Source: Candidatus Omnitrophota bacterium
GTDB taxonomy: Bacteria > Omnitrophota > Gorgyraeia > JAHJTE01
Direction of reading: 5' to 3'
NCBI GenBank assembly: GCA_040753675.1
Contig: JBFMEB010000006.1
Coordinates: 4,561-68,560 of the forward strand
DNA length: 64,000 nt
Shown: positions 510 through 61,330 of the stretch, in pieces
Numbering within the stretch: the first letter of the stretch is position 1
Layout of the letters: every line of letters begins with the position of its first letter
The notes under the pieces: generated by a model
What the model saw: only the letters and a program-made list of their open reading frames with translations
The model's database searches: none
Told to the model about the DNA's origin: nothing
Made by a program: the position numbers and the translations under genes

Positions 510-1016
510 ATGAAGCTGATAAGACAGGATAATCTTTTAAAAATAGCAAAGACTTGGCATATAAAAAGAACCCCAAAATATCGAGCTTTTAAGTGTGCAA
601 ACTGCAGAAGGTTTTTACATCGAGCCTGGCATCACTGGCTTCATAGTGGTGGATTTAGAACTCCGATTCATCTTTGTCAGAAATGCCATAACAATTTGGA
701 CATTACTTATCCGGCTTTAAATCTTTACCCCGTTAGAGAACTACATAAAAAACATAGGAACTTCTCTAACGGGGTTAAGTTAAAAAAGATAAAATTTAGC
801 TTTAAGAAAGAAGTAAGAAAATTTTTAATTAAGATAATTTCTGGTTGGGATATTGCAGAATCGCCACTCTATAAACAATTTACTTGCGATTATTGTAAAA
901 GAATTATTTATAAGACATATCATATATTCTTTAAAGCAAACTCAAAAATTAGCGAAGTGCACCTGTGTAAATATTGCAATCGCCTTATACTATTAAAATC
1001 AAATATCAAAAATTAA
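510..1016 (+). CDS. Hypothetical protein with two tandem CxxC-(22-25)-CxxC zinc-ribbon-like repeats
   Basis: Internal duplication: FKCANCRRF...HLCQKCHN and FTCDYCKRI...HLCKYCNR. It has its own promoter-like sequence. No family recognised. Confidence 0.35.
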   Translation: MKLIRQDNLLKIAKTWHIKRTPKYRAFKCANCRRFLHRAWHHWLHSGGFRTPIHLCQKCHNNLDITYPALNLYPVRELHKKHRNFSNGVKLKKIKFSFKKEVRKFLIKIISGWDIAESPLYKQFTCDYCKRIIYKTYHIFFKANSKISEVHLCKYCNRLILLKSNIKN

Positions 1017-1150
1017 ATATCAAAATGACATATCAAAATTCAAAGTTTTAAAATAAATAATAAAAATGAAAAAAAAGAAATAAAGTAACTTAATTTTGCA
1101 TTTTGCATTGTAATTTTGATTTTTGCATTTTGATTTTTGCATTTTTGAGA
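997..1150. repeat. AT-rich imperfect palindrome of 'caaaat/attttg'-type degenerate repeats. Contains a 45-bp exact inverted copy of 8679-8722
   Basis: Left half is atcaaaa-type units and right half is ttttgcatttt-type units. Positions 1094-1138 are the exact reverse complement of 8679-8722. Confidence 0.8.
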
Positions 1151-1159
1151 GGATACATT

Positions 1160-1195: not shown

Positions 1196-1630
1196 ATGAA
1201 TAAAATTAGATTTAAATTTATCAGCTTAATTTTGGTGATCTTTTTGGCTGTATTTATTGTTGGTTGTGCCTGGCTAAAGGAGTCAGGAAAAAAGTTATGG
1301 GGTTCTTCTACGCAAGCCTTGGAAAAGGCGAGATCCCAAGGCAAAGCTCAGGTTTTTGAATGTTCTTTATCGGCTTGTTTTGATGAATGCTTAAATATAA
1401 TGAGAGATATGAAAGCAACTGTTTTTGCAAAAGATAAAAGGCGAGGGGTATTAATAGCAATGGATTTTAAAGTCAAAGACGTCATTGATACTACAGAGTT
1501 AGGAATATTTTTTACAAAGAGCGAAAATTTGACTAAAGTAGAAATAACCAGCTTAAATCCTGTTCTTATCGATGAAGTCGGCCCAAAAATTTTAAGCGGC
1601 CTGGAGAAGAAATTTTCAATTGTTAATTAG
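1196..1630 (+). CDS. Hypothetical lipoprotein
   Basis: Signal peptide with a lipobox-like IVGC|AW. No recognisable domain. Confidence 0.5.
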   Translation: MNKIRFKFISLILVIFLAVFIVGCAWLKESGKKLWGSSTQALEKARSQGKAQVFECSLSACFDECLNIMRDMKATVFAKDKRRGVLIAMDFKVKDVIDTTELGIFFTKSENLTKVEITSLNPVLIDEVGPKILSGLEKKFSIVN

Positions 1631-1783
1631 GGCGTCGCAAAAGCTCCGCCCTTGATTACACAGATTATAAATGAAGATTACGGTGATTAAATCTTAAAAA
1701 ACAATCTCTGGAATCTAATCAAAAATCACTGTAATCATCAGCCCGAAACGAATTTTGTGAAGGGCTGAAAAAAAGGGGGCAAT

Positions 1784-2221
1784 ATGTTTAAAAAATTGTT
1801 GTTGATATCAGTTGTTTTAGTTATTGCAAGTTTTGCTTTAGGTTGCGAGAATATGGGGGAAAATACTAAAAAAGGAGCTGTGGTAGGCACGTTGATAGGC
1901 GCAGGCACAGGTGCGGTTATCGGGCATCAGACTGGCCGTGCCGGAGAAGGTGCAGCTATTGGCGCTGCAGTAGGCGGAGTTTCCGGCGGCCTCATTGGTT
2001 CCGGGATTGATAAAAGTACTCAAGCTGCAAAACTGGAAAAGCTTTCTTTAAGCGACGTAATTTTATTATCGAAAAATGGCATTGCCGATGAAGTTATTAT
2101 CAATAAAATTAATAATTCTGGCAGCATATTTAATCTTTCCAGCCAGGAAATCGGGCTTTTGAGGAAAGAAGGCGTAAGCGATGCAGTGATAGATACGATG
2201 TTGGCTACGGCTAAGAGGTAA
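1784..2221 (+). CDS. Glycine-zipper lipoprotein (SlyB / 17-kDa-antigen-like)
   Basis: LGC lipobox. Long GxxxG glycine-zipper stretch GAVVGTLIGAGTGAVIGHQTGRAGEGAAIGAAVGGVSGGLIGSGI. Confidence 0.6.
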   Translation: MFKKLLLISVVLVIASFALGCENMGENTKKGAVVGTLIGAGTGAVIGHQTGRAGEGAAIGAAVGGVSGGLIGSGIDKSTQAAKLEKLSLSDVILLSKNGIADEVIINKINNSGSIFNLSSQEIGLLRKEGVSDAVIDTMLATAKR

Positions 2222-2246
2222 AGAAAATAATTTCCTTCGCAATAAA

Positions 2247-2282
2247 AGAGGCCTCTGAGAGAGAGGCCTCAAATCCTTTTTA
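2247..2282 (+). terminator. Rho-independent terminator
   Basis: gaggcctc-tgagaga-gaggcctc hairpin followed by a T-tract. Confidence 0.7.
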
Positions 2283-2294
2283 AGATTAGAAGAC

Positions 2295-3167
2295 ATGCAG
2301 ACAAAATCAGCTCAAATAAAAAAAACACTCATCTTGACTCTTTTTTTAAACTGGCTGGTAGCTTTGGCCAAACTTGTTGTAGGAAAACAAATTGCCAGCA
2401 CCAGCATGTTCGCTGACGGAATTCATTCTTTTTCGGATAGTGCATCTAACATCATCGGTCTGGTAGGGATTTGGCTTGCCTATATGCCAAAGGATGAAGA
2501 TCATCCTTACGGCCATAAGAAATTCGAGACATTTGCTTCCTTAGGTATCGTATTATTGCTTATGCTGGGCTGTGTCAACATAATACACGAGAGTATTGAG
2601 CGCTTCAAAAATCCCGTTATCCCACAGGTAAGCATAATCAGCATTGGCGTTATGTTGGCTACCATGATTATAAATTTAATAGTTATGCTCTATGAGCGTA
2701 GGCGCGGGATTGTCCTTAACAGCGACATCTTAAAATCAGACTCTATGCACACCAGTGCCGATATTTTGACTTCGCTTTCGGTGTTGTTTAGCTTTGCCGC
2801 AGTAAAAATGGGTTTTATTATCCTTGACCCAGTAATAGCCTTGATAATTACTATCTTTATTGGCAAAGTTGCAATCGAGATAATATCCGATGCTTCAAAG
2901 GTGCTCTGCGATGCTACTATTATAGATTCCAAGAAGATTGAGCAGCTTTGTTTAACTATTCCCGGAGTAATAAAATGCCACAAGATCAGGACGCGGGGAA
3001 GGCCGGATGATATCTATGTTGATTTGCATATCTTAGTAAATAAGGATACTAAAATTGTAGCAGCTCACAATCTAAGTTCTATAATTGAAAAAAAGATAAA
3101 AAGCGAAATTGTTGGCGTTAGTGATGTAGTTGTCCACATTGAGCCATGTGACGGACACTGTGATTAA
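2295..3167 (+). CDS. Cation diffusion facilitator (CDF) family metal efflux transporter
   Basis: CDF signature HSFSDSASN in TM2, and the HGHKKFE and DSMHTSADILTS motifs typical of CzcD/FieF-type transporters. Confidence 0.85.
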   Translation: MQTKSAQIKKTLILTLFLNWLVALAKLVVGKQIASTSMFADGIHSFSDSASNIIGLVGIWLAYMPKDEDHPYGHKKFETFASLGIVLLLMLGCVNIIHESIERFKNPVIPQVSIISIGVMLATMIINLIVMLYERRRGIVLNSDILKSDSMHTSADILTSLSVLFSFAAVKMGFIILDPVIALIITIFIGKVAIEIISDASKVLCDATIIDSKKIEQLCLTIPGVIKCHKIRTRGRPDDIYVDLHILVNKDTKIVAAHNLSSIIEKKIKSEIVGVSDVVVHIEPCDGHCD

Positions 3168-3206
3168 AGTTTACAGCTAACAGTGTACAGTTTACAGTAA
3201 AGAGTA

Positions 3207-3464
3207 ATGGAAAATTTTGATTTTGAAAATCTAAATGTTTATAAAAAGTCATTGGAATTTATTCATAATATTTTGGAAATTTATAAAAAATTATCCAGAG
3301 AATTCCAGTATTCCATTTCTTTGGATTCAACGAGAGAATGTATTTCTGTTTTTAATGTTCTATATAGAGAATCCTTCATAGATGAAGGAATTTATAGCAA
3401 ATTACGCTTGGAAGCTAGAGAGATTACCAGCATGTTATGCGGTTTGATAGACTCAATTGGTTAA
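3207..3464 (+). CDS. Small, degenerate four-helix-bundle-like protein (23S rRNA IVS protein family, short)
   Basis: The N-terminus LNVYKKSLEFIHNILEIYKKL resembles 26704 (LEVYKISHKLAIEIHKM). It is flanked by inverted 'gtttacag / ctgtaaac' repeats. Weak call. Confidence 0.35.
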   Translation: MENFDFENLNVYKKSLEFIHNILEIYKKLSREFQYSISLDSTRECISVFNVLYRESFIDEGIYSKLRLEAREITSMLCGLIDSIG

Positions 3465-3519
3465 TACTGTTAACTGTTAACAGTAATCTGTAAACTTTTC
3501 CGACAGAATGGAGGAAATA

Positions 3520-3789
3520 ATGGCACGCAGAGGCGGACTTTCACACATACACTATAGAGAAAAAAGAGGGTTAAAAGTGAGCGCAGGCGAGCATGTTAAA
3601 GCCGGCAGCATCCTGACTCGCCAAGCAGATAAATGGAAACCTGGGATTAATGTTAGAGGTCAAGGCACATTATACGCATTGATAGACGGTGAGGTTTACT
3701 TTACACATAGAAAATCAAGATATAAGACAAAAAAGTCAGAGACAGTTATAAATATCAAGAAAGAGGAATCAAAGAAGACAGTAAAGTAG
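3520..3789 (+). CDS. rpmA: Ribosomal protein L27-like (divergent). Start placed at ATG 3520 with GGAGGA 5 nt upstream
   Basis: MARRGG...[47 protein letters not shown] aligns along the whole length of bacterial L27 (GG..KRLGVK..G..V.AGSII.RQRGT...PG.NVG.G.D.TLFA..DG.V.F). No rplU is adjacent. Confidence 0.6.
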
Positions 3790-3804
3790 TTTGTAGATTG
3801 TAGT

Positions 3805-4257
3805 TTGTTGTCAGTAACAACAGAATTTACTATGTCTAAGAAACTTTGGTTAGGCCTGGGTGCAGTATTTTTAATCTTGTTTGTATCGCAGGCCATATTT
3901 AATATCCGCAGGCATTTCCAGGAAAGTAAAGAATCTGATGTGCCGGAAATTATTGTGGATATGGCAACTTTAAACGAAACAATTTTAGCAGAAGAATTGG
4001 AGCCTAAACCAATTCCCAAAAATAATATACCTAAGGCCAAAGTTAGCCAAGTTTCTTCTTCAGATTTACCTAAAGATATGAAAGAAATTCAGCGGGCATT
4101 AAAATCAGCCGGTTTTAATCCTGGTGCTATTGACGGAAAGTTGGGTAGTCAGACAGAGGCTGCTATCAAGAATTTTCAGAAGGTTAGCAATCTTAAGGTT
4201 GATGGAAGAGTAGGCCGCAATACCTGGCGGCTGTTGAAGAAATATTTAAAAGATTAA
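3805..4257 (+). CDS. Membrane-anchored peptidoglycan-binding domain protein
   Basis: N-terminal TM. C-terminus LKSAGFNPGAIDGKLGSQTEAAIKNFQK...VDGRVGRNTWRLL matches the PG_binding_1 fold. Confidence 0.7.
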   Translation: MLSVTTEFTMSKKLWLGLGAVFLILFVSQAIFNIRRHFQESKESDVPEIIVDMATLNETILAEELEPKPIPKNNIPKAKVSQVSSSDLPKDMKEIQRALKSAGFNPGAIDGKLGSQTEAAIKNFQKVSNLKVDGRVGRNTWRLLKKYLKD

Positions 4258-4319
4258 CCGAACCCATTGATTTAATTTAAGTAAGGTGATATAATAATAA
4301 ATTAAATCTAAAATAAGGA

Positions 4320-4874
4320 GTGAACTTGAAACTAAGATTTATTTGGCTATTTTCGTTAGTATTATTTTTAGGCTCTTGCGTTTCCCTGACTGCCAATTTC
4401 AGTCCTGCAGATAAACTGTATTTCCAGGCAAAGCAGTTTGCAAAAGAAGGCAAGAGAGATTTTGTTTTTTTGAGCTTAAGCGAACTTATCCGGGAATACC
4501 CCGGCTATAAATTTATTGCAGAGGCAAGATTTGCCGTAGGCGAGTATCACTTTCTATCCGGTAATTATAATAAGGCGGTTAACGATCTCGTTGGATTTTT
4601 AAAAAACTATCCTAACCATAAGGGGAGCGTTTTTGCTAAGAGTTTCCTTTATAAAATTATTAATGATAATAAATGGATAAATAGCGAAGAAGCGGGAAAG
4701 ATTGCAAAGGCTATTAAAGAAGAATTTTTTTCTACTCCCGCCTTTTTTGTTTTTTCTGAATTTAAAGAAAAGAGCCTAAAGTCTCTCTTAGGAAATTCTT
4801 ATTCCTTAAAAGAATATGTAGATAAAATAGAAATATTCGCTAATGGCAAACTTTTACTCAGCGTCTCCCTTTAA
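4320..4874 (+). CDS. TPR-like lipoprotein. Candidate BamD/YbgF or pilotin (PilF/Tgl)-like; subtype unresolved
   Basis: Signal plus LGSC lipobox. TPR-like helical repeats (YFQAKQFAKEGKRDF..., FAVGEYHFLSGNYNKAVNDLVGFLKNYP). GTG/TTG start. Confidence 0.5.
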   Translation: MNLKLRFIWLFSLVLFLGSCVSLTANFSPADKLYFQAKQFAKEGKRDFVFLSLSELIREYPGYKFIAEARFAVGEYHFLSGNYNKAVNDLVGFLKNYPNHKGSVFAKSFLYKIINDNKWINSEEAGKIAKAIKEEFFSTPAFFVFSEFKEKSLKSLLGNSYSLKEYVDKIEIFANGKLLLSVSL

Positions 4875-6945
4875 GCGCTTAGTTAAAGTAATTCTAATTG
4901 TTGTCTGTTTGGTTATTATTTTTGACACCTTCCTTTCTCTTTTCCTATTCCGTTACGTCCACAGAGTAATCAATAATATCGATCCCAAATTGGGGAAAAT
5001 CTATATCTCACAAGTTAGCATAGATTTCCTAAGGGGCATTGTTTTACAGGACGTCTCTATTGTGGATAATGCCACTCCACCCCAAATTTTGTTTCAGGCT
5101 AAAAAACTTAATTTAAAATTTGATCCCCTATCGATTTTAAATAGAGAATTAAATTTTAATAGAATAAAATGCGTTGGTTTAGATATCTATATAAATAAAG
5201 ATTCTCAGACTTTAAAAAAAATATCTTTAATCAGCAAGGCTGCCTATGAAGAATTCTTAAAAAACCAGATTCTGCCATTAGAGTTAGTCTTTAAAGACCC
5301 ATCGGTAAATTTTATTTCGAGTAAGTTTATAGTTGCAGATTTTTCGGGAGAAGAACCAGGGATATGGATTGTCCGGCTAAAAGGTATGGCCGCTTTGAGA
5401 AATAAGAAAATTTTTTCGCAAGGCTCAGTTAATTTGGAACACAAACTTTCCGCAACCTCTTCCTTTATAAATCTTTTTAGAAATCAGTTTTTAAGCCAGG
5501 ATTTTGACTACCGGTTAATTGCCAACTTGAAAAAAAATGATTTCTTGATTGAAGATTTTGATATTATGGTCGGTTATGACCATATTAAAGGTCAGGCAAT
5601 TGTCAGTAATTTTACTACCTCCAAGCCTATTATTAATCTTATTGTTAATACCAGCAATCTTTCCATTGAGAATATAACTTCCTTAATTAAAGATTTTGAT
5701 ACGCGCGGCTCATTCAATTTATCTGCTGCGGCAAGGGGACCATTAGACAATCTGAAGTTTATTATTACCTTAAATTTCCTTGGTTGCACTTTTCGTTATT
5801 CCTCATTTCCGGTATTAAAAAATATTGTAGGAAAGGTTAAATTGACAGAAAGCGCACTTACCATTGATAATCTTTTCTTGATTTTTAATGACGTGGGCCT
5901 GAACGTTAACTCTCGAATAAGCCAGAAACAGGATACAACACAGATTAGCGCTGATATCAGTATAAAACCGTCCCAGGCGCAAATAGCTTTTTTGCCGCGT
6001 TCGATAAATATTAATTCTAACTGGCAGAGGAAGAATGTTGGTTTGGGTGGCAACTTATCTTTCACCTATGAGGCAACCGACAACAACAAGTATTCAATGA
6101 ATCTGGAAGAGGTGGCTTTTCTAAAAGAAAATGTTGGAGGGTCGCTGAAAGCTAAGAAAGTAATTTTTAGACAGATTCCCTTGCAGGGAGATAAAGAAAA
6201 AAAATTTGATTTGTCTGATTTTGCAGCAAAGTTTGAGCCAAAAAAAGGAGAATTTAACTTAAGCGATATAAAGGTATCTGGTTTTTCTGGTCAGATAAGT
6301 GCTAATATTTATCTTGGCGGCGCTGGCAGTTATCGTTATGCGTCATCTTTACTTGCGCAGAATCTGGATGCTTCACAGATACAAGCCGGGCTGGCAGTGC
6401 CTTATAATCTTTTAGGATTTATTTGGGCAAAAATATTTTCCAGTTCGACAGACAGGGATTTCACTAAAGGTATCTTATTAATAAAAAAAGGCAAATTACA
6501 GGAGACTGCTTTATTATTGTCTTTAGCCGAATATCTGAATATCAATTCCTTAAAAGCGATTGATTTCGATGAGATGCAGTTACGATTTTCATTTTTAAAA
6601 AACGGCGTATTTAGATACGGTTTGAAAAGCAAAGGTAAAGACGTAGTGTTGGATGCCAATTTCCAGATTGGTAAGGACCAGCAGCTCTCTGGTTATTTCA
6701 ATGCAAACATTAACCATACCTTATTGATGGAATCGAATAAATTGCGTAGATTGCTAAAGATGATTGGCGATGAGTCGGCTTCTGTAGATTTTCCTTTTAA
6801 ATTAGGAGGCACGATACATAAGCCAAGATTAAGCTGGTTACGTAATGATTTTAAACGTTCACTTGAACACGTAATTCCCGCTTGGTATAGGCAGGGAATG
6901 CAGAAAGGTATTGACGATGCAGTTGAGGAAATGTTCAAGGAGTAA
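4843..6945 (+). CDS. AsmA-family large outer-membrane-biogenesis-like protein
   Basis: N-terminal TM followed by a long beta-rich body. The C-terminal FPFKLGGTIHKPRLSW resembles the AsmA C-terminal motif. No secretin motifs. Confidence 0.5.
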   Translation: MANFYSASPFKRLVKVILIVVCLVIIFDTFLSLFLFRYVHRVINNIDPKLGKIYISQVSIDFLRGIVLQDVSIVDNATPPQILFQAKKLNLKFDPLSILNRELNFNRIKCVGLDIYINKDSQTLKKISLISKAAYEEFLKNQILPLELVFKDPSVNFISSKFIVADFSGEEPGIWIVRLKGMAALRNKKIFSQGSVNLEHKLSATSSFINLFRNQFLSQDFDYRLIANLKKNDFLIEDFDIMVGYDHIKGQAIVSNFTTSKPIINLIVNTSNLSIENITSLIKDFDTRGSFNLSAAARGPLDNLKFIITLNFLGCTFRYSSFPVLKNIVGKVKLTESALTIDNLFLIFNDVGLNVNSRISQKQDTTQISADISIKPSQAQIAFLPRSININSNWQRKNVGLGGNLSFTYEATDNNKYSMNLEEVAFLKENVGGSLKAKKVIFRQIPLQGDKEKKFDLSDFAAKFEPKKGEFNLSDIKVSGFSGQISANIYLGGAGSYRYASSLLAQNLDASQIQAGLAVPYNLLGFIWAKIFSSSTDRDFTKGILLIKKGKLQETALLLSLAEYLNINSLKAIDFDEMQLRFSFLKNGVFRYGLKSKGKDVVLDANFQIGKDQQLSGYFNANINHTLLMESNKLRRLLKMIGDESASVDFPFKLGGTIHKPRLSWLRNDFKRSLEHVIPAWYRQGMQKGIDDAVEEMFKE

Positions 6946-6948
6946 AAG

Positions 6949-8643
6949 ATGATGCAAGAGAAAAAATCGCTGGGCTTTAGTTTGGTTGAAGCAGGATTAT
7001 TAGGCTCGGAAGAGTTAAAATTAGCGGAAAAAGAGGCGAAAAAAAATAGCATATCCCTGCGAAAGGCTATTCTAAAATTGGGAATTATTGAGGAAGATGC
7101 GCTGGTTTCATTCTTAAGCACTCATTTAGGTATTCCCAGTATAGACTTGAGCACTTATTTGATAGACCCGGCAATTTTGCAGCATGTGCCAAAAGATTTG
7201 GCTGAAAAATATGACCTTATTCCGGTTTTTAAAATTGGCGATACATTGACATGTGCAATGTCTGAGCCCTTAAATATCGTTGCCCAGGATGAAATCCGCC
7301 TAAAGACAGGTTTTAATATCGAAGCAGTTGTGGCAAGGGAATCGGATATAAAAAGCGCAATCTATTCTTATTATGGAGAGAAGACTTCTGTAGAAGACGT
7401 AGTGAAGGAATTAGAACAAGTTGAGGCAGATTTAAAATCAGGCAGAGAGATAGCAGCTAAACGGCTTAAAGATTTAGCCCAAGAGCCTCCGCTTATCCGT
7501 TTGGTGAACCTTTTGATTATGAAGGCAATTAAAGAAGAAGCCAGCGATATTCATATCGAACCAGAAGAAAATACCCTGCGGGTGCGTTATCGTATTGACG
7601 GCATATTGCATGATGTTGAAGCCCCGCCAAAACATTTGCAGCAGGCAATAATTTCTCGTATTAAGATACTTTCTAATCTGGATATTGCAGAGCGCAGGAT
7701 TCCTCAGGATGGACGGTTTCAGGTTAGCGCAGAAAATAGGCGCATTGATATCCGAGTCTCTTGCGTGCCGACAATTTTTGGCGAAAATATTGTATTGAGA
7801 TTACTTGATACCACACACCTAAAGTTGAATTTGCAGGATTTAGGCTTTGAGAGCGAGGAATTGGAAAAATTCGAACGCTTTATCCAGAGGCCCCATGGAA
7901 TTATCTTGGTAACTGGACCTACCGGCAGTGGAAAGACAACGACTTTATATGCAGCTTTAAATAAGATAAATTCCGCAGAAAAAAATATTATTACTATTGA
8001 AGACCCTGTTGAATATCGTCTGGCAGGAGTGCGCCAGATTCAAGTTAATCCTAAGGTGAATCTTACCTTTGCTAATGGCTTACGTTCGATATTGCGCCAG
8101 GATCCTGATATAATAATGGTAGGAGAAATTCGCGATAGAGACACTGCCGAGATTGCTATACATGCTGCTTTAACCGGTCATTTAGTGCTTTCGACATTGC
8201 ACACTAATGATGCCGCCGGAGCAATTACCCGGCTTATTGACATGGGTATAGAACCATTTCTGGTCGCCTCATCGGTTATCGGCATAGTTGCACAAAGATT
8301 AGTGAGAACAATCTGTTCTGGTTGCAAAGAAGCATATCAAGTCTCAGATAAAATATTAGAAAGTATTGAGTTGGAGAGAACTGTTAGAGGTCCTGTATAT
8401 TTTCATCACGGTAGAGGCTGTAATAAATGCCTTAATACTGGCTTTCACGGTCGAACAGCAATTTTTGAACTCTTATTAATGGAAGAAACAGTCAGAGAAT
8501 TAACGCTAAAAAAGGCATCGACAAGTGCTATAAATCAAGCCGCAATTAAATTAGGTATGCGTAATTTAAGAGAATCTGGCTTAAAAAAGGTCAGTAGCGC
8601 TATAACCACTATTGAAGAATTAATGCGGGTTACTGAGGAGTAA
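6949..8643 (+). CDS. pilB: Type IV pilus / T2SS assembly ATPase (PilB/GspE/MshE family) with an MshEN-type N-terminus
   Basis: Tandem T2SSE_N domains. Walker A GPTGSGKTTT, Asp and His boxes. Tetracysteine CSGCKEAY...CNKCLNTGF. The N-terminus SLGFSLVEAGLLGSEELKLA fits the MshEN c-di-GMP-binding motif. Confidence 0.9.
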   Translation: MMQEKKSLGFSLVEAGLLGSEELKLAEKEAKKNSISLRKAILKLGIIEEDALVSFLSTHLGIPSIDLSTYLIDPAILQHVPKDLAEKYDLIPVFKIGDTLTCAMSEPLNIVAQDEIRLKTGFNIEAVVARESDIKSAIYSYYGEKTSVEDVVKELEQVEADLKSGREIAAKRLKDLAQEPPLIRLVNLLIMKAIKEEASDIHIEPEENTLRVRYRIDGILHDVEAPPKHLQQAIISRIKILSNLDIAERRIPQDGRFQVSAENRRIDIRVSCVPTIFGENIVLRLLDTTHLKLNLQDLGFESEELEKFERFIQRPHGIILVTGPTGSGKTTTLYAALNKINSAEKNIITIEDPVEYRLAGVRQIQVNPKVNLTFANGLRSILRQDPDIIMVGEIRDRDTAEIAIHAALTGHLVLSTLHTNDAAGAITRLIDMGIEPFLVASSVIGIVAQRLVRTICSGCKEAYQVSDKILESIELERTVRGPVYFHHGRGCNKCLNTGFHGRTAIFELLLMEETVRELTLKKASTSAINQAAIKLGMRNLRESGLKKVSSAITTIEELMRVTEE

Positions 8644-8672
8644 ACACGGTGCCTTGAATAAATAACGCTTTA

Positions 8673-8775
8673 ATGTAAAAATCAAAATGCAAAAATCAAA
8701 ATTACAATGCAAAATGCAAAATTTTTTAATTTTGATATGTCATTTTAATATTTAATTTTTAATATTTGATATAAA
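8673..8775. repeat. AT-rich imperfect palindrome (caaaat family) at the pilB1-pilC1 junction
   Basis: aaaatcaaaatgcaaaaatcaaaattacaatgcaaaatgcaaaat ... ttttgatatgtcattttaatatttaatttttaatatttgatat. Positions 8679-8722 are an exact inverted copy of 1094-1138. Confidence 0.8.
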
Positions 8776-8805
8776 GACAGTAGTATTTTTGGGAGATAAA
8801 TTAAT

Positions 8806-10080: not shown

Positions 10081-10200
10081 AACTTACCCAGCACTTATTT
10101 TACTAAAAAGCTGGATAATAAAATTAAGATTTTATTCGAAGAAAATTTATTTTATTTCAAATCAAAGCCTGGCAGTAAAATAAGTGCTGGGTTAAATTCG
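10081..10200. repeat. ~120-bp MITE-like inverted-repeat element, copy A. It has 18-bp perfect arms cccagcacttattttact / agtaaaataagtgctggg
   Basis: Near-identical, with 3-4 differences, to 51154-51275. The internal aataaaat-taag-attttatt sub-hairpin is conserved. Confidence 0.85.
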
Positions 10201-11304: not shown

Positions 11305-11826
11305 ATGATTTTTTCTCCTCGTGGTTTAACTTTACTTGAAGTCCTGATAAGTCTAGCCATTATCAGCATATTAATCGTTGCTGTAACTTTTACTGCGCTA
11401 AGCGTATTTCGCTCTTGGCCCACTGAGGCAGGCCATAGCGAAGAGCGGCTTTTAGCAGCAAATGCGCTTGAAAGGATGCTTAGAGAATTTAGAAGCAGCC
11501 TAAGAATAGTGCTTGCTCAAAGTAACCAAATTACATTTTGGTTAGATTCAAATGATAATGGCATTGAAGATACGCTAACGGAAGATGTAAATTTTTCTTG
11601 GTCAGGAGTAGCAGGTGAGAGCCTATACCTAGCTGAAGGAGCAGTAAGTCAAGAAATTTTAAAAAATATAAATAATTTTTCAATTGTCTATTTCGACGAT
11701 AATAATCAGGTTTTAACCACGCCAATAAATTTATCTTTAGTTAGATTATTAGAGATTAATTTATCTAATCAGATTGATGAGGAAGTGGTTAATTTAAGAT
11801 TCAAAGTAAAGTTGAGAAACCTATAA
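11305..11826 (+). CDS. Prepilin-type minor pilin (PilW-like pseudopilin)
   Basis: MIFSPRG|LTLLEVLISLAIISIL N-terminal methylation motif. Confidence 0.6.
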   Translation: MIFSPRGLTLLEVLISLAIISILIVAVTFTALSVFRSWPTEAGHSEERLLAANALERMLREFRSSLRIVLAQSNQITFWLDSNDNGIEDTLTEDVNFSWSGVAGESLYLAEGAVSQEILKNINNFSIVYFDDNNQVLTTPINLSLVRLLEINLSNQIDEEVVNLRFKVKLRNL

Positions 11827-11957
11827 GTAAAATCAAAAATCAAATATAAAAATGCAAAATGACAATGCAAAATTTAAAATTTATAAACTTAAGTTTAAAA
11901 TAATTTTACATTTTAATATGTAATTTTGATATTTAATTTTTGATATTTAATTTTTAT
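11827..11957. repeat. AT-rich imperfect palindrome (caaaat family) centred on taaacttaagttta
   Basis: aaatcaaaaatcaaatataaaaatgcaaaatgacaatgcaaaat ... attttaatatgtaattttgatatttaatttttgatatttaattttt. Confidence 0.8.
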
Positions 11958-13460: not shown

Positions 13461-13567
13461 AAGTCAAAAGTTGTCATACAATTGTCATACTATTGTCATA
13501 TATTGTCTATTTACAATGTATGACCATATTTGACTATTTATGACTACGTATGACTTATTACTGTCTG
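13461..13567. repeat. 'tgtcata/tatgaca' palindromic repeat element, copy A
   Basis: aagtcaaaagttgtcatacaattgtcatactattgtcata...atgtatgaccatatttgactatttatgactacgtatgacttattactgtctg. Near-identical to 39470-39572. Confidence 0.85.
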
Positions 13568-18001: not shown

Positions 18002-18040
18002 TATAAAGATAAATTTAAATATCAAAAATCAAATATCAAA

Positions 18041-18421
18041 ATGGCAATACAAAATTCAAAATCTGATGACTTTAAAGAGAAATTTAAACAAAGACTATAT
18101 GATTTTGTATTAAAGCTTATCAATTTTTTAGATAGTTTAGCTAAAGATAATGTTTCAAGAAGAATTAGTGACCAATTGTTAAGGAGCGGAACAAGTATTC
18201 TTGGGAATTATATTGAAGGTAAATCAGCAAGCAGTAAAAAAGAGTTTACTAATTTTTTTAATACTTCCTTGAAGTCGGCTAATGAAAGCAAATTATGGCT
18301 TACATTATTGCGTGATGCTAAACGAGCTAATACTGAAGAAGTAACTTGGTTTCTGAAAGAACTCGATGAGATTTCTAATATTTTTGCATCAAGCATTTTG
18401 ACACTTAAAGGTAAAAAGTAA
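18041..18421 (+). CDS. Four-helix-bundle protein (TIGR02436 / '23S rRNA intervening sequence protein' family)
   Basis: DQLLRSGTSILGNYIEGKSASSKKEFTNFFNTSLKSANESKLWLTLL matches the family core. The gene sits between pilB2 and pilC2 inside a caaaat/attttg palindrome (18002-18040 and 18422-18482). Confidence 0.75.
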   Translation: MAIQNSKSDDFKEKFKQRLYDFVLKLINFLDSLAKDNVSRRISDQLLRSGTSILGNYIEGKSASSKKEFTNFFNTSLKSANESKLWLTLLRDAKRANTEEVTWFLKELDEISNIFASSILTLKGKK

Positions 18422-18482
18422 TTTTTAATTTTAATATGTAATTTTGATTTTTGCAGTTTGATTTTTGAATTAGTTTTATATT

Positions 18483-24559: not shown

Positions 24560-26605
24560 ATGAGAGATTTTTTTAAGATCTTAAAAGAGTTAAAAGATTA
24601 TGAAGACTATTTAGCAGTGATAGTTTTTTTTATTTTTGTTTTTTTAATCTATTTTAAGAGTTTAGCTACTCCATTTGTATTTGATGACATCCATATGATT
24701 CTACGCAACAGTTATATAAAAGAACTTAAAAATCTGCATTTGCCATTTATTCGCGGCCGTGTGACAAACGTACCCTTAGAGAAAGGAATGTATCGGCCAC
24801 TATTAATGGCGAGTTTTGCCTTTAATTATCTTTTTGGCAGATTAAATCCAATTGGCTATCACATTATTAATATGATGTTTCATTTCTTAAATGCCTCGTT
24901 ATTATTTCTTTTATTTAAGCAGTTATTAAAAAAAGGCTCTTTTTGGCCAGCATTTATTGCTAGTTTATTATTCTTGCTCCATCCTGTAAACAGCGAAGCA
25001 GTAATTTATATATCATGTCGTTCAACCTTAATGGCTTCTTTTTTTCTTTTGTTAGGCCTGCTTTCTTATGCAAAATGGGAAGGACAGAAATTTGATAAAA
25101 AATATTATCTTAGTTTAATTAGTTTTGCCTGCGGTCTTTTTACTAAAGAAGTTATGATTATCTTTCCTTTGATGTTAATGAGTTACGATTTTCTCTTTAG
25201 AAAAGACTCAAAGCGCACTTTTACTGCTTTTATCAAAAGTCATTTCTTGTTCTTATTTATTGCCATATCTTATCTTTTATTAAGGCATAACTTAATCGGC
25301 GCCTTTACTAATTTAAGTTTGAAACGCAGTATTTATGAGAATTTCCTTACGAATTTACATGCCGGTGTTTATTATTTTAAATTATTCTTTTATCCTGTCA
25401 ATCTATGTATAGGTAGATATTTTCCTACCAGTAAATCTTTTTTTGAGCCGCAGATTTTGCAGTCAGCTGGAATTGTAGTTACCCTTGCAGTAATTGCTAT
25501 GGCGGTCTCCATTCGTTACCCAGTAGTTACTTTTGGAATATTTTGGTTTTTTTTAAATTTAGTGCCAAAGTTTATTGCCTCTTTAGCTTTATTAGCAGCC
25601 GAACACCATCTCTATCTGCCGGCAATGGGCATAGTTATGGTTATAGCCTTTGTCTTAAAGAAGATTAATGAGGTTTTGCAAGAGAGAAAATATAAATTGA
25701 TAAAAATGATGGTAGTGATATTGATTTTGAGCTTATTGTCTATTAGTGCAATACTTAGCTATCAGCGAAATGTTGTCTGGAATGACGAAACTGCTTTATG
25801 GCTTAATAATATTAAACATTCTCCTTTAGCCTGGGGGGCTTATAACAATCTTGGCTTACTCGCCTTAGGCAAAGGTAGATATGAAGAGGCGCATCAATAT
25901 TTTATTAAAGCCTTGGCAGGCCTGGAGCGTCTCGCCTCACCAGGCATGGAGATAGATTTGCATACTAACTTAGGAAGACTTTATTTGGAAACTGGAAAAT
26001 TAGATTTAGCCCAAGAAGAATTTTTTAAAGTGCTTGCTCTTAATCCTTTTGTTGCCGAGGCTCATAATAATTTGGGATTGGTCTATGCGAGGAAAGGCCT
26101 GCAAGAAAAAGAGAAAGAAGAGTTTAAATTAGCAATGGAATTAGACCCTTCTCTCGTAGAGGCATATAGCAACTTGGCAATTTCTTATTTCCGAGCGAAG
26201 GACTATCAACAGGCAATAGAACTCTCAAATAAGGCAATTAAGTTAAACCCAGATTACTCTAAACCTTATCTAGTTTTGTCAAAAATTTATGAAGAATTGA
26301 AAGATTTTAATCAATCGATCATTTTTAAGAAAATGGCAATGAATTTAATGCCAACCGATGCACAAGATTATTACGAGTTGGGGCTGCTCTATGGCAAGAT
26401 TGATAATACAAAAGCCATTGAAGCCTTTAAAGAAGCTATTAAATTGAATCCAGAATTTGCTGGTGCGCATAACAACTTGGCAGTAATTTATGCTAATTTA
26501 GAACCTCCCCAGCTTGAGCTTGCCAGGAAACACGCTCAATTTGCTTTGAAATACGGATATAAGGTTAAGCCTCAAGTATTGAGGCAGCTGGGGATTGAGC
26601 CATGA
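24560..26605 (+). CDS. Membrane protein with an N-terminal GT-C/PMT_2-like polytopic domain and C-terminal TPR repeats
   Basis: Multiple TMs up to ~aa 400, then at least 5 TPR units (AWGAYNNLGLLALGKGRYEEAHQYF..., AEAHNNLGLVYARKG..., AGAHNNLAVIYANL...). Confidence 0.65.
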   Translation: MRDFFKILKELKDYEDYLAVIVFFIFVFLIYFKSLATPFVFDDIHMILRNSYIKELKNLHLPFIRGRVTNVPLEKGMYRPLLMASFAFNYLFGRLNPIGYHIINMMFHFLNASLLFLLFKQLLKKGSFWPAFIASLLFLLHPVNSEAVIYISCRSTLMASFFLLLGLLSYAKWEGQKFDKKYYLSLISFACGLFTKEVMIIFPLMLMSYDFLFRKDSKRTFTAFIKSHFLFLFIAISYLLLRHNLIGAFTNLSLKRSIYENFLTNLHAGVYYFKLFFYPVNLCIGRYFPTSKSFFEPQILQSAGIVVTLAVIAMAVSIRYPVVTFGIFWFFLNLVPKFIASLALLAAEHHLYLPAMGIVMVIAFVLKKINEVLQERKYKLIKMMVVILILSLLSISAILSYQRNVVWNDETALWLNNIKHSPLAWGAYNNLGLLALGKGRYEEAHQYFIKALAGLERLASPGMEIDLHTNLGRLYLETGKLDLAQEEFFKVLALNPFVAEAHNNLGLVYARKGLQEKEKEEFKLAMELDPSLVEAYSNLAISYFRAKDYQQAIELSNKAIKLNPDYSKPYLVLSKIYEELKDFNQSIIFKKMAMNLMPTDAQDYYELGLLYGKIDNTKAIEAFKEAIKLNPEFAGAHNNLAVIYANLEPPQLELARKHAQFALKYGYKVKPQVLRQLGIEP

Positions 26606-26673
26606 GTTATGGGTTATGTGCTATGGGTTATGAGCCATGTGCTAGGAGTTATGCGCTTTGTGTTATGAGTTAA
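26596..26673. repeat. Tandem degenerate 14-bp repeat, ~5.5 units of g[ag]g[ct][ct]atg[tg]g[ct]tat
   Basis: gagccatgagttat gggttatgtgctat gggttatgagccat gtgctaggagttat gcgctttgtgttat gagtta. Confidence 0.8.
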
Positions 26674-26703
26674 AATTATACTAATGTATAAGAAAGGAGA
26701 AAT

Positions 26704-27075
26704 ATGCAGAGTTATAAAGATTTAGAAGTATATAAAATTTCGCATAAGTTAGCAATCGAAATTCATAAAATGACATTGGAATTACCTTATTTTGAAATGT
26801 ATGAGGAAGGCAGTCAAATAAGAAAATCTGCTAAAGCGATTCCAGCAAATATTGTTGAGGGATTTGGAAGGAAGAAATATCAGCAAGATTACTTGCGTTT
26901 TGTTATTATTGCTCATGCTTCCTGTAATGAGACAATAGAACATTTAGAAATTTTATTTGAAACAGGTTCTTTAAAAGATAGGGATAAATTCAATTATTTT
27001 CTAAAACAATATGATATCCTTGGCAGAAAACTTAATAAATTTATCCAAGCAATCGAAAAACAGCTGGAAATCTAA
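26704..27075 (+). CDS. Four-helix-bundle protein (23S rRNA IVS protein family), canonical member
   Basis: YKDLEVYKISHKLAIEIHKMT...IRKSAKAIPANIVEGFGRKKYQQDYLRFVIIAHASCNETIEHL is the classic family pattern. Confidence 0.85.
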   Translation: MQSYKDLEVYKISHKLAIEIHKMTLELPYFEMYEEGSQIRKSAKAIPANIVEGFGRKKYQQDYLRFVIIAHASCNETIEHLEILFETGSLKDRDKFNYFLKQYDILGRKLNKFIQAIEKQLEI

Positions 27076-27116
27076 ACACAAAGCCCAAAGCTCACGACAC
27101 ATTAGCCCAATATCCC

Positions 27117-39469: not shown

Positions 39470-39572
39470 GGTCAAAAGTTGTCATACAATTGTCATACCA
39501 TTGTCATATGTTGTTTTTATAATATATGACAATACTTGACTATTTATGACTATGTATGACTTATTGCTGTCT
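39470..39572. repeat. 'tgtcata/tatgaca' palindromic repeat element, copy B, preceded by the acgcagatgatcactgatg motif
   Basis: gggtcaaaagttgtcatacaattgtcataccattgtcatatg...atatatgacaatacttgactatttatgactatgtatgacttattgctgtct. About 90% identical to 13461-13567. Confidence 0.85.
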
Positions 39573-43330: not shown

Positions 43331-45839
<2,509 letters not shown>

Positions 45840-45876
45840 AATTCCAAATTGCAAGCACCAAATAACAAACAATATC

Positions 45877-45896
45877 TCTGCCTGCCGGCAGGCAGG
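45877..45896. repeat. GC-rich palindrome tctgcctgccggcaggcagg, copy 2
   Basis: 19/20 identical to 35438-35457. Lies 3' of purA. Confidence 0.8.
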
Positions 45897-45900
45897 CAAT

Positions 45901-46010
45901 ATCAAAATTACAATGACCAAAACTTAATTTTTAAAAGTTTGTAATTTTACTCATTGGAATTTGAGATTTATTTGGAATTTGGGATTTGTTTATTGGAATT
46001 TAACAGGGGC
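45901..46010. repeat. 'ttggaatttg' degenerate repeat half-element sharing the 22-mer atcaaaattacaatgaccaaaa with 61209-61230
   Basis: atcaaaattacaatgaccaaaa...tcattggaatttgagatttatttggaatttgggatttgtttattggaattt. Confidence 0.75.
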
Positions 46011-49415: not shown

Positions 49416-49477
49416 CCCCGCCCTTTTGGTTAGGGCGGAATTGAAAAATAAAAATATATCTCGCCAAAAGGGCGGGG
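49416..49477. repeat. Inverted-repeat hairpin element (ccccgcccttttgg...ccaaaagggcgggg). Architectural analogue of the 10081-10200 element
   Basis: 14-bp perfect arms, 34-nt loop. Followed by the same ttaaattcg junction and the three-stem leader. Confidence 0.7.
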
Positions 49478-49485
49478 TTAAATTC

Positions 49486-49548
49486 GCAGACGACCTTACG
49501 GTCTACAGCTTACGTCGTTAACACTCCGTAAGTTGTCTGCTCATTTAA
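49486..49548 (+). ncRNA. Candidate structured 5' leader, copy B, upstream of uppS
   Basis: P1 gcagacgac/gttgtctgc. P2 gacc-ttac-ggtc. P3 agcttacg-(tcg...ctcc)-cgtaagtt. Then tcatttaaa-ATG. Every stem differs from copy A by compensatory changes. Confidence 0.5.
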
Positions 49549-51145: not shown

Positions 51146-51153
51146 CGTCTGCG

Positions 51154-51275
51154 AACTTAACCCAGCACTTATTTTACTAAGAAAGCTGGATAATAAAATT
51201 AAGATTTTATTCGAAGAAAATTTATTTTATTTCACATTTAAGCCTGGCAGTAAAATAAGTGCTGGGTCAAATTCG
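51154..51275. repeat. ~120-bp MITE-like inverted-repeat element, copy B, near-identical to 10081-10200
   Basis: Same 18-bp arms and the same internal sequence, with 3-4 differences (caaatcaaag vs cacatttaag). Confidence 0.85.
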
Positions 51276-61149: not shown

Positions 61150-61330
61150 ATAGAAAGAATTCTTAAATTCCAATATACAATTACCAAATTCCAAACAATT
61201 TTACAATATCAAAATTACAATGACCAAAATAGAAAATCCTTAAGCTTTTTGTCTAGAATATTGGAATTTGGAATTTGTTTGTGATTTGTAATTTGGAATT
61301 TGTGATTTTGAGCTTTTCTTGCTACTCGTT
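61150..61330. repeat. 'caaattcc / ggaatttg' imperfect palindromic repeat element. Full element with both arms
   Basis: aaattccaatatacaattaccaaattccaaa...atcaaaattacaatgaccaaaa...ttggaatttggaatttgtttgtgatttgtaatttggaatttgtgattttgag. Confidence 0.8.

Follow-up and report, generated by a model that had tools for sequence, protein, structure and literature searches.

Palindromic elements in an Omnitrophota chromosome are probably gene-less copies of an inserted cassette resembling rRNA intervening sequences

The elements reported here most resemble the intervening sequences (IVSs) of bacterial 23S rRNA. In the 23S IVS of Coxiella, terminal inverted repeats bound an open reading frame (ORF) of the S23p/four-helix-bundle (4HB) type, and tandem GACAGAT heptamers precede its start codon (PMC4990558). 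RNase III cuts this IVS in its stem (PMC4990558). We analyzed a 64,000-nucleotide stretch of DNA from Candidatus Omnitrophota bacterium (GenBank assembly GCA_040753675.1, contig JBFMEB010000006.1, positions 4,561 to 68,560, forward strand), hereafter the window. Several gene junctions in the window contain AT-rich imperfect palindromes. These are probably gene-less copies of an inserted IVS-like cassette, which in its full form consists of two inverted arrays of ~7-nt units with a gene for a 4HB protein of ~125 aa between them.

Imperfect palindromes of 100-150 bp, dispersed in both orientations and located inside transcription units, are known as Correia elements or NEMIS (Neisseria miniature insertion sequences) in Neisseria, as enterobacterial repetitive intergenic consensus (ERIC) sequences in enterobacteria, and as Rickettsia palindromic elements. 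The transcripts of Correia elements are cut by RNase III, and Rickettsia palindromic elements can sit in frame within genes. The short tandemly repeated repetitive (STRR) sequences of cyanobacteria are tandem heptamers. Heptameric intergenic repeats are described from Xanthomonas (GGGAATC) and Nostoc (GGGGA(T/C)T), where they often lie inside operons and their function is unexplained; Xanthomonas has 70-75 convergent pairs of heptamer arrays able to form stem-loops (PMC4692102). In the solved retroelement complex, the protein Avd is a pentamer working with a structured RNA (PDB 4DWL, 8UBE; PMC10053308).

A complete cassette and three gene-less elements

The spacer between gspE2 and gspF2 is filled by E4, a complete 481-nt cassette of family 1 (F1) on the plus strand (18003-18482). 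A sequence-only reading of the window had listed 18002-18040 and 18422-18482 as two separate spacers. They are the two arms of this one element, and the gene that the palindrome encloses had been missed. The 5' arm (approximately 18010-18068) includes the start codon and the first ~9 codons of the gene, and the 3' arm (18420-18472) begins at the stop codon. The gene (18041-18421, plus strand) encodes a 4HB protein of 126 aa that matches Pfam PF05635, '23S rRNA-intervening sequence protein' (E 7.7e-19), and NCBIfam TIGR02436, 'four helix bundle protein' (E 2.4e-23). The ORF in the Leptospira and Coxiella 23S rRNA IVSs belongs to this family, which is related to Avd of diversity-generating retroelements. 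The predicted structure consists of four helices (pLDDT 93). Among solved structures it is closest to 2RLD ('S23 ribosomal protein family', five chains) and 2GSC (Xcc0516), with a weaker match to the retroelement protein bAvd (4DWL, 8UBE; Foldseek E 0.045-0.2, 10-13% identity). The F1 protein has >3300 homologues. The nearest of them (75-88% identity) belong to Omnitrophota, Gribaldobacteria and other bacteria of the candidate phyla radiation (CPR), WOR-3, and Planctomycetes.

Three further F1 elements in the window are short (115-163 bp), noncoding, dispersed, and bounded by terminal inverted repeats. E1 (991-1153, minus strand) was delimited by its inverted repeat and by arm profiles. It has a 3'-type arm (994-1047) and a 5'-type arm (1092-1153) with an AT-rich center of ~47 nt between them. 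The upstream ORF (510-1016) runs into E1, which contains its last seven codons and its stop codon. E2 (8665-8779, plus strand), delimited by arm profiles, occupies the gspE/gspF junction. Its 5' arm (8665-8721) directly abuts its 3' arm (8723-8775), and the position of the start codon (8701) reads ATT. E3 (11821-11955, plus strand), likewise delimited by arm profiles, lies between a pseudopilin gene and a gene resembling T2SS-K of the type II secretion system. Its arms span 11821-11879 and 11902-11953, and it retains a relic start codon with nine codons (MQNDNAKFK, 11852-11878), where the N-terminal consensus of the family reads MQNDKxKFK. The gene that follows takes its ATG (11956) from the last bases of E3. 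Because the arms of E1-E3 match those of E4 and its relatives, and because E3 keeps the start and nine codons of the gene, we regard the three as probable gene-less copies of the cassette.

Profiles of the 5' and 3' arms, built from 59 cassettes, match the window at E1-E4 only (threshold E 1e-3). The arms of E1-E3 also align better to the arms of 4HB cassettes than to shuffled AT-rich sequence. Judged by arm type, E2, E3, and E4 are oriented with the surrounding genes and E1 is inverted. The paired arms are 75% complementary in E1 (995-1047/1092-1144, 53 nt), 78% in E3 (11829-11874/11902-11947, 46 nt), and 75% in E4 (18012-18062/18421-18471, 51 nt). Complementarity between arms of different elements is 81-88%.

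The palindromes noted in the sequence-only reading are real and lie well beyond chance. The longest exact inverted match in the window is 47 nt (1092-1138 versus 8677-8723), whereas distant exact inverted repeats reach no more than 15-19 nt when the window is shuffled 20 times with its dinucleotides preserved. This match had been reported as an exact inverted duplicate of 45 bp. The duplicate exists, but it measures 47 nt and is one part of an inverted match between E1 and E2 over both arms. The two elements are near-identical inverted copies, apart from the extra ~47-nt center of E1. E1 and E2 are thus sister copies.

The repeat unit is a degenerate heptamer. Tandem Repeats Finder gives a period of 7 at E1-E4 and at the elements of families F2, F3, and F7, and the autocorrelation of the arms peaks at lags of 7 and 13-14. 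Families F4 and F6 have periods of 8 and 10-11, not 7. A hexamer-like unit had been proposed. The repeats themselves are genuine, and ATCAAAAT is enriched in the window (24 copies versus 9.6 in shuffles), with 10 of the 24 copies inside the elements, which occupy 0.9% of the window. The hexamer CAAAAT, in contrast, shows no enrichment (115 copies versus 111 in shuffles).

Inverted heptamer arrays around a 4HB gene recur, with unrelated heptamers, in many phyla. In 78 distinct F1 relatives from Omnitrophota, CPR bacteria, and WOR-3, the ~52 nt that follow the stop codon repeat, in inverted orientation, the segment surrounding the start codon (about -25 to +28), with z >= 4 against shuffles in most of them. 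F1 arm sequences are conserved in Omnitrophota, Parcubacteria/Gribaldobacteria, Saccharibacteria, and WOR-3. The order of the arms and the enclosed gene are, like the arm sequence, conserved across phyla. Further gene-less F1 pairs were found in loci L015, L053, L079, and L095. In L015 (7591-7680), one F1 arm is broken by a GC-rich hairpin (GCCTGCC…GGCAGGC) similar to one next to a window element at 45880 (45880-45900). Around relatives of the F3 protein, too, there are inverted arrays, built from other heptamers. One F3-type cassette from an uncultured bacterium (L104, 1840-2850) is placed between giant genes (8477 and 6362 aa) and is bracketed by direct repeats of ~100 nt containing hairpins; no duplication of this length was seen elsewhere.

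The same design was observed around distant homologues on plasmids of cultured bacteria, mostly cyanobacteria. Inverted heptamer arrays are present at 9/11 of these loci (inverted-repeat z 5-17), namely in Nostoc (two species), Dolichospermum, Planktothrix, Euhalothece, Gloeocapsa, Pseudanabaena, Chlorohelix, and Treponema. Nostoc flagelliforme has (TAATTCG)x4 upstream of the gene and (TTACGAA)x4 downstream. Dolichospermum has (TAATTCG)x4 followed by (GAATTTG)x6 upstream and (TTACGAA)x4 downstream. The corresponding arrays are (GTCGGAG)x4 and (CGACCTC)x5 in Nostoc punctiforme, and CAGTTAC/CAGTGAG units and (CACTGGT)x13 in Euhalothece. The two exceptions are Anabaena cylindrica, with a weak inverted repeat (z 2.9), and Bernardetia, in which the flanking repeats look direct. 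Some plasmid 4HB genes with heptamer arms are found inside defense loci (L121, L123, L125, L126). The gene is located between cas2 and cas1 in Anabaena cylindrica, adjacent to cas1 in Pseudanabaena, between helicase and N6-methylase genes in Chlorohelix, and between DUF1156 and HEPN genes in Gloeocapsa.

Occupied, empty, and differently occupied gene junctions

Syntenic Omnitrophota loci were found through homologues of GspF from the window: L100 (90% identity), L101 (71%), and L102/L103 (66%). The junction upstream of the gene at 1196 is 179 nt long in the window, where it holds E1, and 22 nt in L101. The gspE/gspF junction measures 162 nt with E2 in the window, 9 nt in L101, and 24 nt in L102; in L100 it is 168 nt long and contains an unrelated palindrome of GGGTTAG units. 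At the pseudopilin/T2SS-K junction, the window has 129 nt with E3, L100 and L101 have a full 4HB cassette of an ATCAG-unit family, and L102 has an element-free spacer of 72 nt. The gspE2/gspF2 junction with E4 (481 nt) corresponds to 12 nt in L102. Since the junctions in the syntenic relatives are short (9-24 nt), element-free (72 nt), or occupied by another family, we conclude that E1-E4 are insertions. The suggestion that the palindromes are repeats like REP (repetitive extragenic palindromic) sequences or MITEs (miniature inverted-repeat transposable elements) agrees with this. They are dispersed, they occur in both orientations, and they are missing from the same junctions in syntenic relatives.

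Elements of other families show similar polymorphism. The junction between a cation-efflux gene and the L27 gene is 340 nt long in the window, with an F2 cassette. It has the same arms with a nested further palindrome in L101, and it is 21 nt long in L102. Inside the F2 arms of L101 (3247-3645), a palindrome of AATGCCT/AATGTCT units stands in place of the ORF. The T2SS-K/pilM junction (158 nt in the window) holds a TTGTCATAC palindrome, in L101 a gene-less ATCAG-family palindrome, and in L102 just 16 nt.

The host contexts of the cassettes are diverse, with ~47 different contexts among 100 F1 cassettes. In a Gribaldobacteria (CPR) genome, for example, F1 arms surround a 4HB gene between the S30AE and SecA genes. 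An F1 arm-like sequence (…AAATTCAAAATTCAAAAATCAAAAATCAAAATGACAATTCAAAATTCAAAAAT…) is also found in frame within secA of a Gribaldobacteria genome (L003, 3931-3991; also L004-L012). The length of SecA differs between samples (846, 862, and 871 aa), which recalls the in-gene Rickettsia palindromic elements. Some insertion sites are common to diverged genomes. Complete cassettes are co-oriented with their neighbors: 31 have the upstream gene in the same orientation versus 2 in the opposite one, and for the downstream gene the numbers are 32 versus 0. Little or none of a spacer lies outside its element. An element's terminal TAA is often the stop codon of the upstream gene, and its terminal A is often the first base of the downstream ATG.

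The window is ordinary chromosome with pilus, secretion, signaling, and housekeeping genes. All ORFs with a domain match are on the plus strand, and the GC skew is positive throughout. The first 32 kb contain two full gspE/gspF/pilM-N/pilO-like gene sets and a third pilM-N/pilO set. Carriage of the cassettes by phages finds no support, with no match in 50,697 phage records and none in a pattern scan of IMG/VR. No F1 cassette was found inside rRNA genes when conserved rRNA motifs were sought in loci L001-L103, and scans of the whole window for tRNA and with Rfam (including rRNA) gave no match. A search for promoters and terminators found none specific to the arms. The best sigma-70-like promoter match of the first 20 kb (1159-1187, TTGCCA-17-TATAAT with TG) is located just downstream of E1, and its -10 box (TATAAT) is conserved in L101 and L102, both of which are without E1.

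There are three PF05635 genes in the window (18041-18421, 26704-27075, and a truncated one at 3207-3464), each between inverted arrays of a different heptamer. The F2 cassette (3166-3498, plus strand), between the cation-efflux gene and rpmA (L27), has arms of xxxACAG heptamers (3166-3199 and 3465-3498) that enclose the truncated 85-aa PF05635 ORF. The F3 cassette (26596-27112, plus strand) consists of ~10 tandem TTATGxG heptamers (26602-26672), a 123-aa PF05635 gene (E 6e-27), and an inverted array (27068-27112).

The remaining palindromes are gene-less. The one at the T2SS-K/pilM junction (13463-13566) is built from TTGTCATAC units of 10-11 nt (fold z -5.6). A second TTGTCATAC palindrome (39471-39572, fold z -5.5) lies between the phosphoenolpyruvate (PEP) carboxykinase gene pckA and the phosphoglycerate dehydrogenase gene serA. 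Palindromes with GGAATTTG heptamer arms are present at the junctions of purA with an H+-pyrophosphatase (H+-PPase) gene (45839-46003) and of infB with a class-I tRNA-synthetase gene (61158-61310). In the first of these, the inner core (45898-45922) resembles the F1 start region, and its GAATTTG array also flanks the 4HB gene on the Dolichospermum plasmid. A core shared between the 47-nt match and these ggaatttg-family elements, as previously pointed out, is present (45898, 61206), but the elements fall below the arm-profile threshold.

Another dispersed intergenic repeat occurs at 10086-10192, 51152-51275, and 49468-49517. It has ACCCAGCACTTATTTTACT / AGTAAAATAAGTGCTGGGT arms of 19-27 nt (93-100% complementary) and an AT-rich loop of ~70 nt. 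Two copies, each between small GC hairpins, are 96% identical over 94 nt; one precedes a pseudopilin gene and the other dxr. The repeat has no Rfam match. The ORF that ends inside E1 (510-1016) itself contains a 32-nt inverted repeat (716-786, 78% complementary, 7-nt loop) with a GC-containing core, CCCCGTTAGAG/CTCTAACGGGG. Its homologue in L101 is 42% identical.

Pairing of the arms and competing explanations

In both the minimum free energy and the centroid folds of all three complete cassettes, the 5' arm pairs with the 3' arm around the ORF. In a fixed register, G.U outnumbers A.C on the sense strand (133 versus 55 cells; 29 versus 9 positions). An earlier count from local alignments, which was ambiguous, gave 119 versus 92. 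F1 registers shifted by 7 pair almost as well.

We propose the following course of events for the cassette. It would be transcribed with its host operon, because it is almost always co-oriented with its neighbors. In the operon transcript, the arms would pair into a long imperfect stem able to slip register. Such a stem could bury the 4HB start codon and thereby limit translation of the 4HB protein. By analogy with rRNA IVSs, RNase III probably cuts the stem, which would make an insertion between genes tolerable. The idea that the palindromes are RNA-level sites of double-stranded RNA processing is plausible on the same analogy, since the complete form has the anatomy of an RNase III-cut 23S rRNA IVS. 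Gene-less forms may result from loss of the loop between the arms, and the abutting arms of E2 are the remnant expected from such a loss. Because E1 and E2 are near-identical, it appears that gene-less forms can be copied themselves. We speculate that the 4HB protein recognizes the heptamer arrays.

Several observations weigh against a mobile cassette of this kind. Target-site duplication is not consistent; flank alignments have a mean score of 13.3 versus 12.9 in a cross-locus null, and 2/74 exceed the 99th percentile. (Isolated flanking direct repeats are seen in L030 and L044.) Transposase, integrase, and reverse-transcriptase domains were not found among the 42 window ORFs scanned, with ~10 longer plus-strand ORFs outside the scan. 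E4 was considered as the parent of E1-E3 and rejected, as their arms resemble cassettes of other metagenomes more closely than E4. Independence of the loci is limited; several share host sites, and all come from metagenome assemblies except the plasmid records. The pairing evidence is also limited. The G.U excess supports pairing weakly and may arise in part from coding constraints and base skew. Within F1, compensatory covariation is absent (32 double changes versus 43 in permutations), and broken pairs are slightly commoner than in permutations. F1 pairing is imperfect, with 75-79% of positions paired and mismatches that are mostly transversions. The fold z-scores of the AT-rich elements are weak (-0.01 to -3.9, depending on the strand folded). 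Since the arms are conserved without compensatory covariation, the conserved feature is an inverted motif array. A simple RNA stem would explain such an array no better than sequence-specific recognition, perhaps by the pentameric protein of the cassette itself. To that extent, the protein-binding arrays proposed in the sequence-only reading are possible.

If recognition is by a protein of the host, the pilus/type II secretion operons could be under the control of a regulator or nucleoid protein bound to the arrays. The lack of covariation in arms conserved as repeated motifs suits this explanation, and four F1 elements do lie among pilus genes, to which the sequence-only reading had tied their role. 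However, the same arms flank the 4HB gene at the S30AE/SecA junction of a CPR genome and occur in the ~47 other contexts. Palindromes of the same design are present at housekeeping junctions (purA/H+-PPase, infB/tRNA-synthetase, and pckA/serA). The orthologous pilus junctions of L101 and L102/L103 are 9-24 nt long or an element-free 72 nt, and the gspE/gspF junction of L100 has an unrelated palindrome. A role tied to the pilus genes is not supported by this comparison, and we consider regulator sites highly improbable. Even less credit can be given to the proposal that the 7.5 kb bounded by the 47-nt copies (1092-1138 and 8677-8723) can invert as a DNA switch. An exact inverted repeat of 47 nt would suffice for occasional homologous recombination. 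But gene order and orientation between the copies (1196-8643) are as in L101 and L102, all genes of the segment run with their neighbors, and no recombinase domain was found among the scanned ORFs. The match is accounted for by two whole copies of a dispersed element in opposite orientation.

Growth in place by polymerase slippage at AT-rich spacers would make the arrays simple-sequence repeats instead of mobile-element copies. Bacteria carry an excess of heptamer repeats, for which slippage has been suggested as an explanation (PMC4692102); the number of heptamers differs among Coxiella strains (PMC4990558); and the arms here pair in registers shifted by 7. Slippage may indeed lengthen arrays, but it cannot account for dispersed, oriented, two-armed copies. 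E1 and E2 are 7.5 kb apart yet share 47 exact bases and both arms, E3 keeps coding sequence of the 4HB gene, and in different phyla the arms retain their sequence, their order, and the gene between them. We regard slippage as the source of the elements as very unlikely. A further explanation is compatible with inserted cassettes: the elements may be former insertions that the host now uses as operon-internal modules for RNA processing, stability, or translation. In favor of such use, the elements fill most or all of their spacers, their ends often provide the upstream stop codon and the first base of the ATG downstream, and some sites are common to diverged genomes. Relatives nevertheless work without elements at the same junctions, and different families occupy one junction, so that host use is doubtful, although less so than the other three. 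Gene-less copies of an inserted IVS-like cassette remain the probable explanation of the palindromes.

Comparison with described systems

A wider reading can be offered tentatively, and we consider it rather unlikely. 4HB genes and their inverted heptamer arrays would, across phyla, belong to a single class of mobile cassettes, of which rRNA IVSs and the STRR and Xanthomonas repeats would be special cases or gene-less remnants. An Avd-like pentamer would recognize its own array, as RNA or single-stranded DNA, and drive copying without a conventional transposase, possibly via an RNA intermediate. Full-text searches, in which few subscription journals were covered, found no paper that connects heptamer arrays outside rRNA with the 4HB genes they flank. 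Where rRNA IVSs come from, how they move, and what their ORF does have been open questions since the early 1990s, as has the meaning of the tandem heptamers of cyanobacteria and Xanthomonas. The present results suggest that these may be one phenomenon, a two-armed heptamer cassette that enters gene junctions in many phyla, with or without a 4HB gene. The loci described here offer clear empty, occupied, and differently occupied sites in otherwise syntenic operons. They supply cognate pairs of protein and array, defined transcripts for RNase III, and natural presence/absence polymorphisms as test material. For annotation, such 'spacers' provide neighboring genes with stop and start codons and can be mistaken for regulatory regions.

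Among known repeats, the elements share with the heptameric intergenic repeats and STRR sequences tandem 7-nt units, an intergenic location, and convergent pairs. The 4HB/S23p gene is unmentioned in the description of the heptamer repeats (PMC4692102), whereas here the arrays are the arms of 4HB cassettes, including those on Nostoc, Dolichospermum, and Planktothrix plasmids. The arm-like in-frame insert in CPR secA is comparable to the Rickettsia elements. There is, however, no sequence relation to the Correia, ERIC, or Rickettsia elements, no target-site duplication, and the arms here are heptamer arrays. E1-E3 are like MITEs in being short, noncoding, bounded by terminal inverted repeats, and dispersed in several copies. 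Unlike MITEs, they have no target-site duplication, and their gene-carrying relative encodes the 4HB protein alone and no transposase. The 4HB protein has the same fold and belongs to the same superfamily as Avd of diversity-generating retroelements. In contrast to these retroelements, no reverse-transcriptase domain was found among the scanned window ORFs (template and variable repeats were not specifically searched), and the window 4HB genes neighbor secretion, ribosomal, and signaling genes. An invertible DNA switch differs in that the segment here has the orientation of its syntenic relatives, and no recombinase was found among the scanned ORFs.

The closest agreement is with the rRNA IVSs of Leptospira and Coxiella burnetii (PMC4990558, citing Ralph and McClelland 1993). 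In both, terminal inverted repeats are able to form a stem around an S23p/PF05635 ORF, tandem heptamers precede the start, the ribosome-binding site is poor, and the start is near or inside the stem. Both also have gene-less short forms, and both are regarded as selfish. Cutting by RNase III is shown for rRNA IVSs and is proposed here by analogy. The cassettes in this study differ in that both arms are long heptamer arrays of ~50 nt or more, and in that empty and alternatively occupied sites are documented for them. They are located between protein-coding genes in operons, with no rRNA in the window or in related loci. Because all IVS features tested are present except the defining location in rRNA, we call these cassettes IVS-like, and not IVSs.

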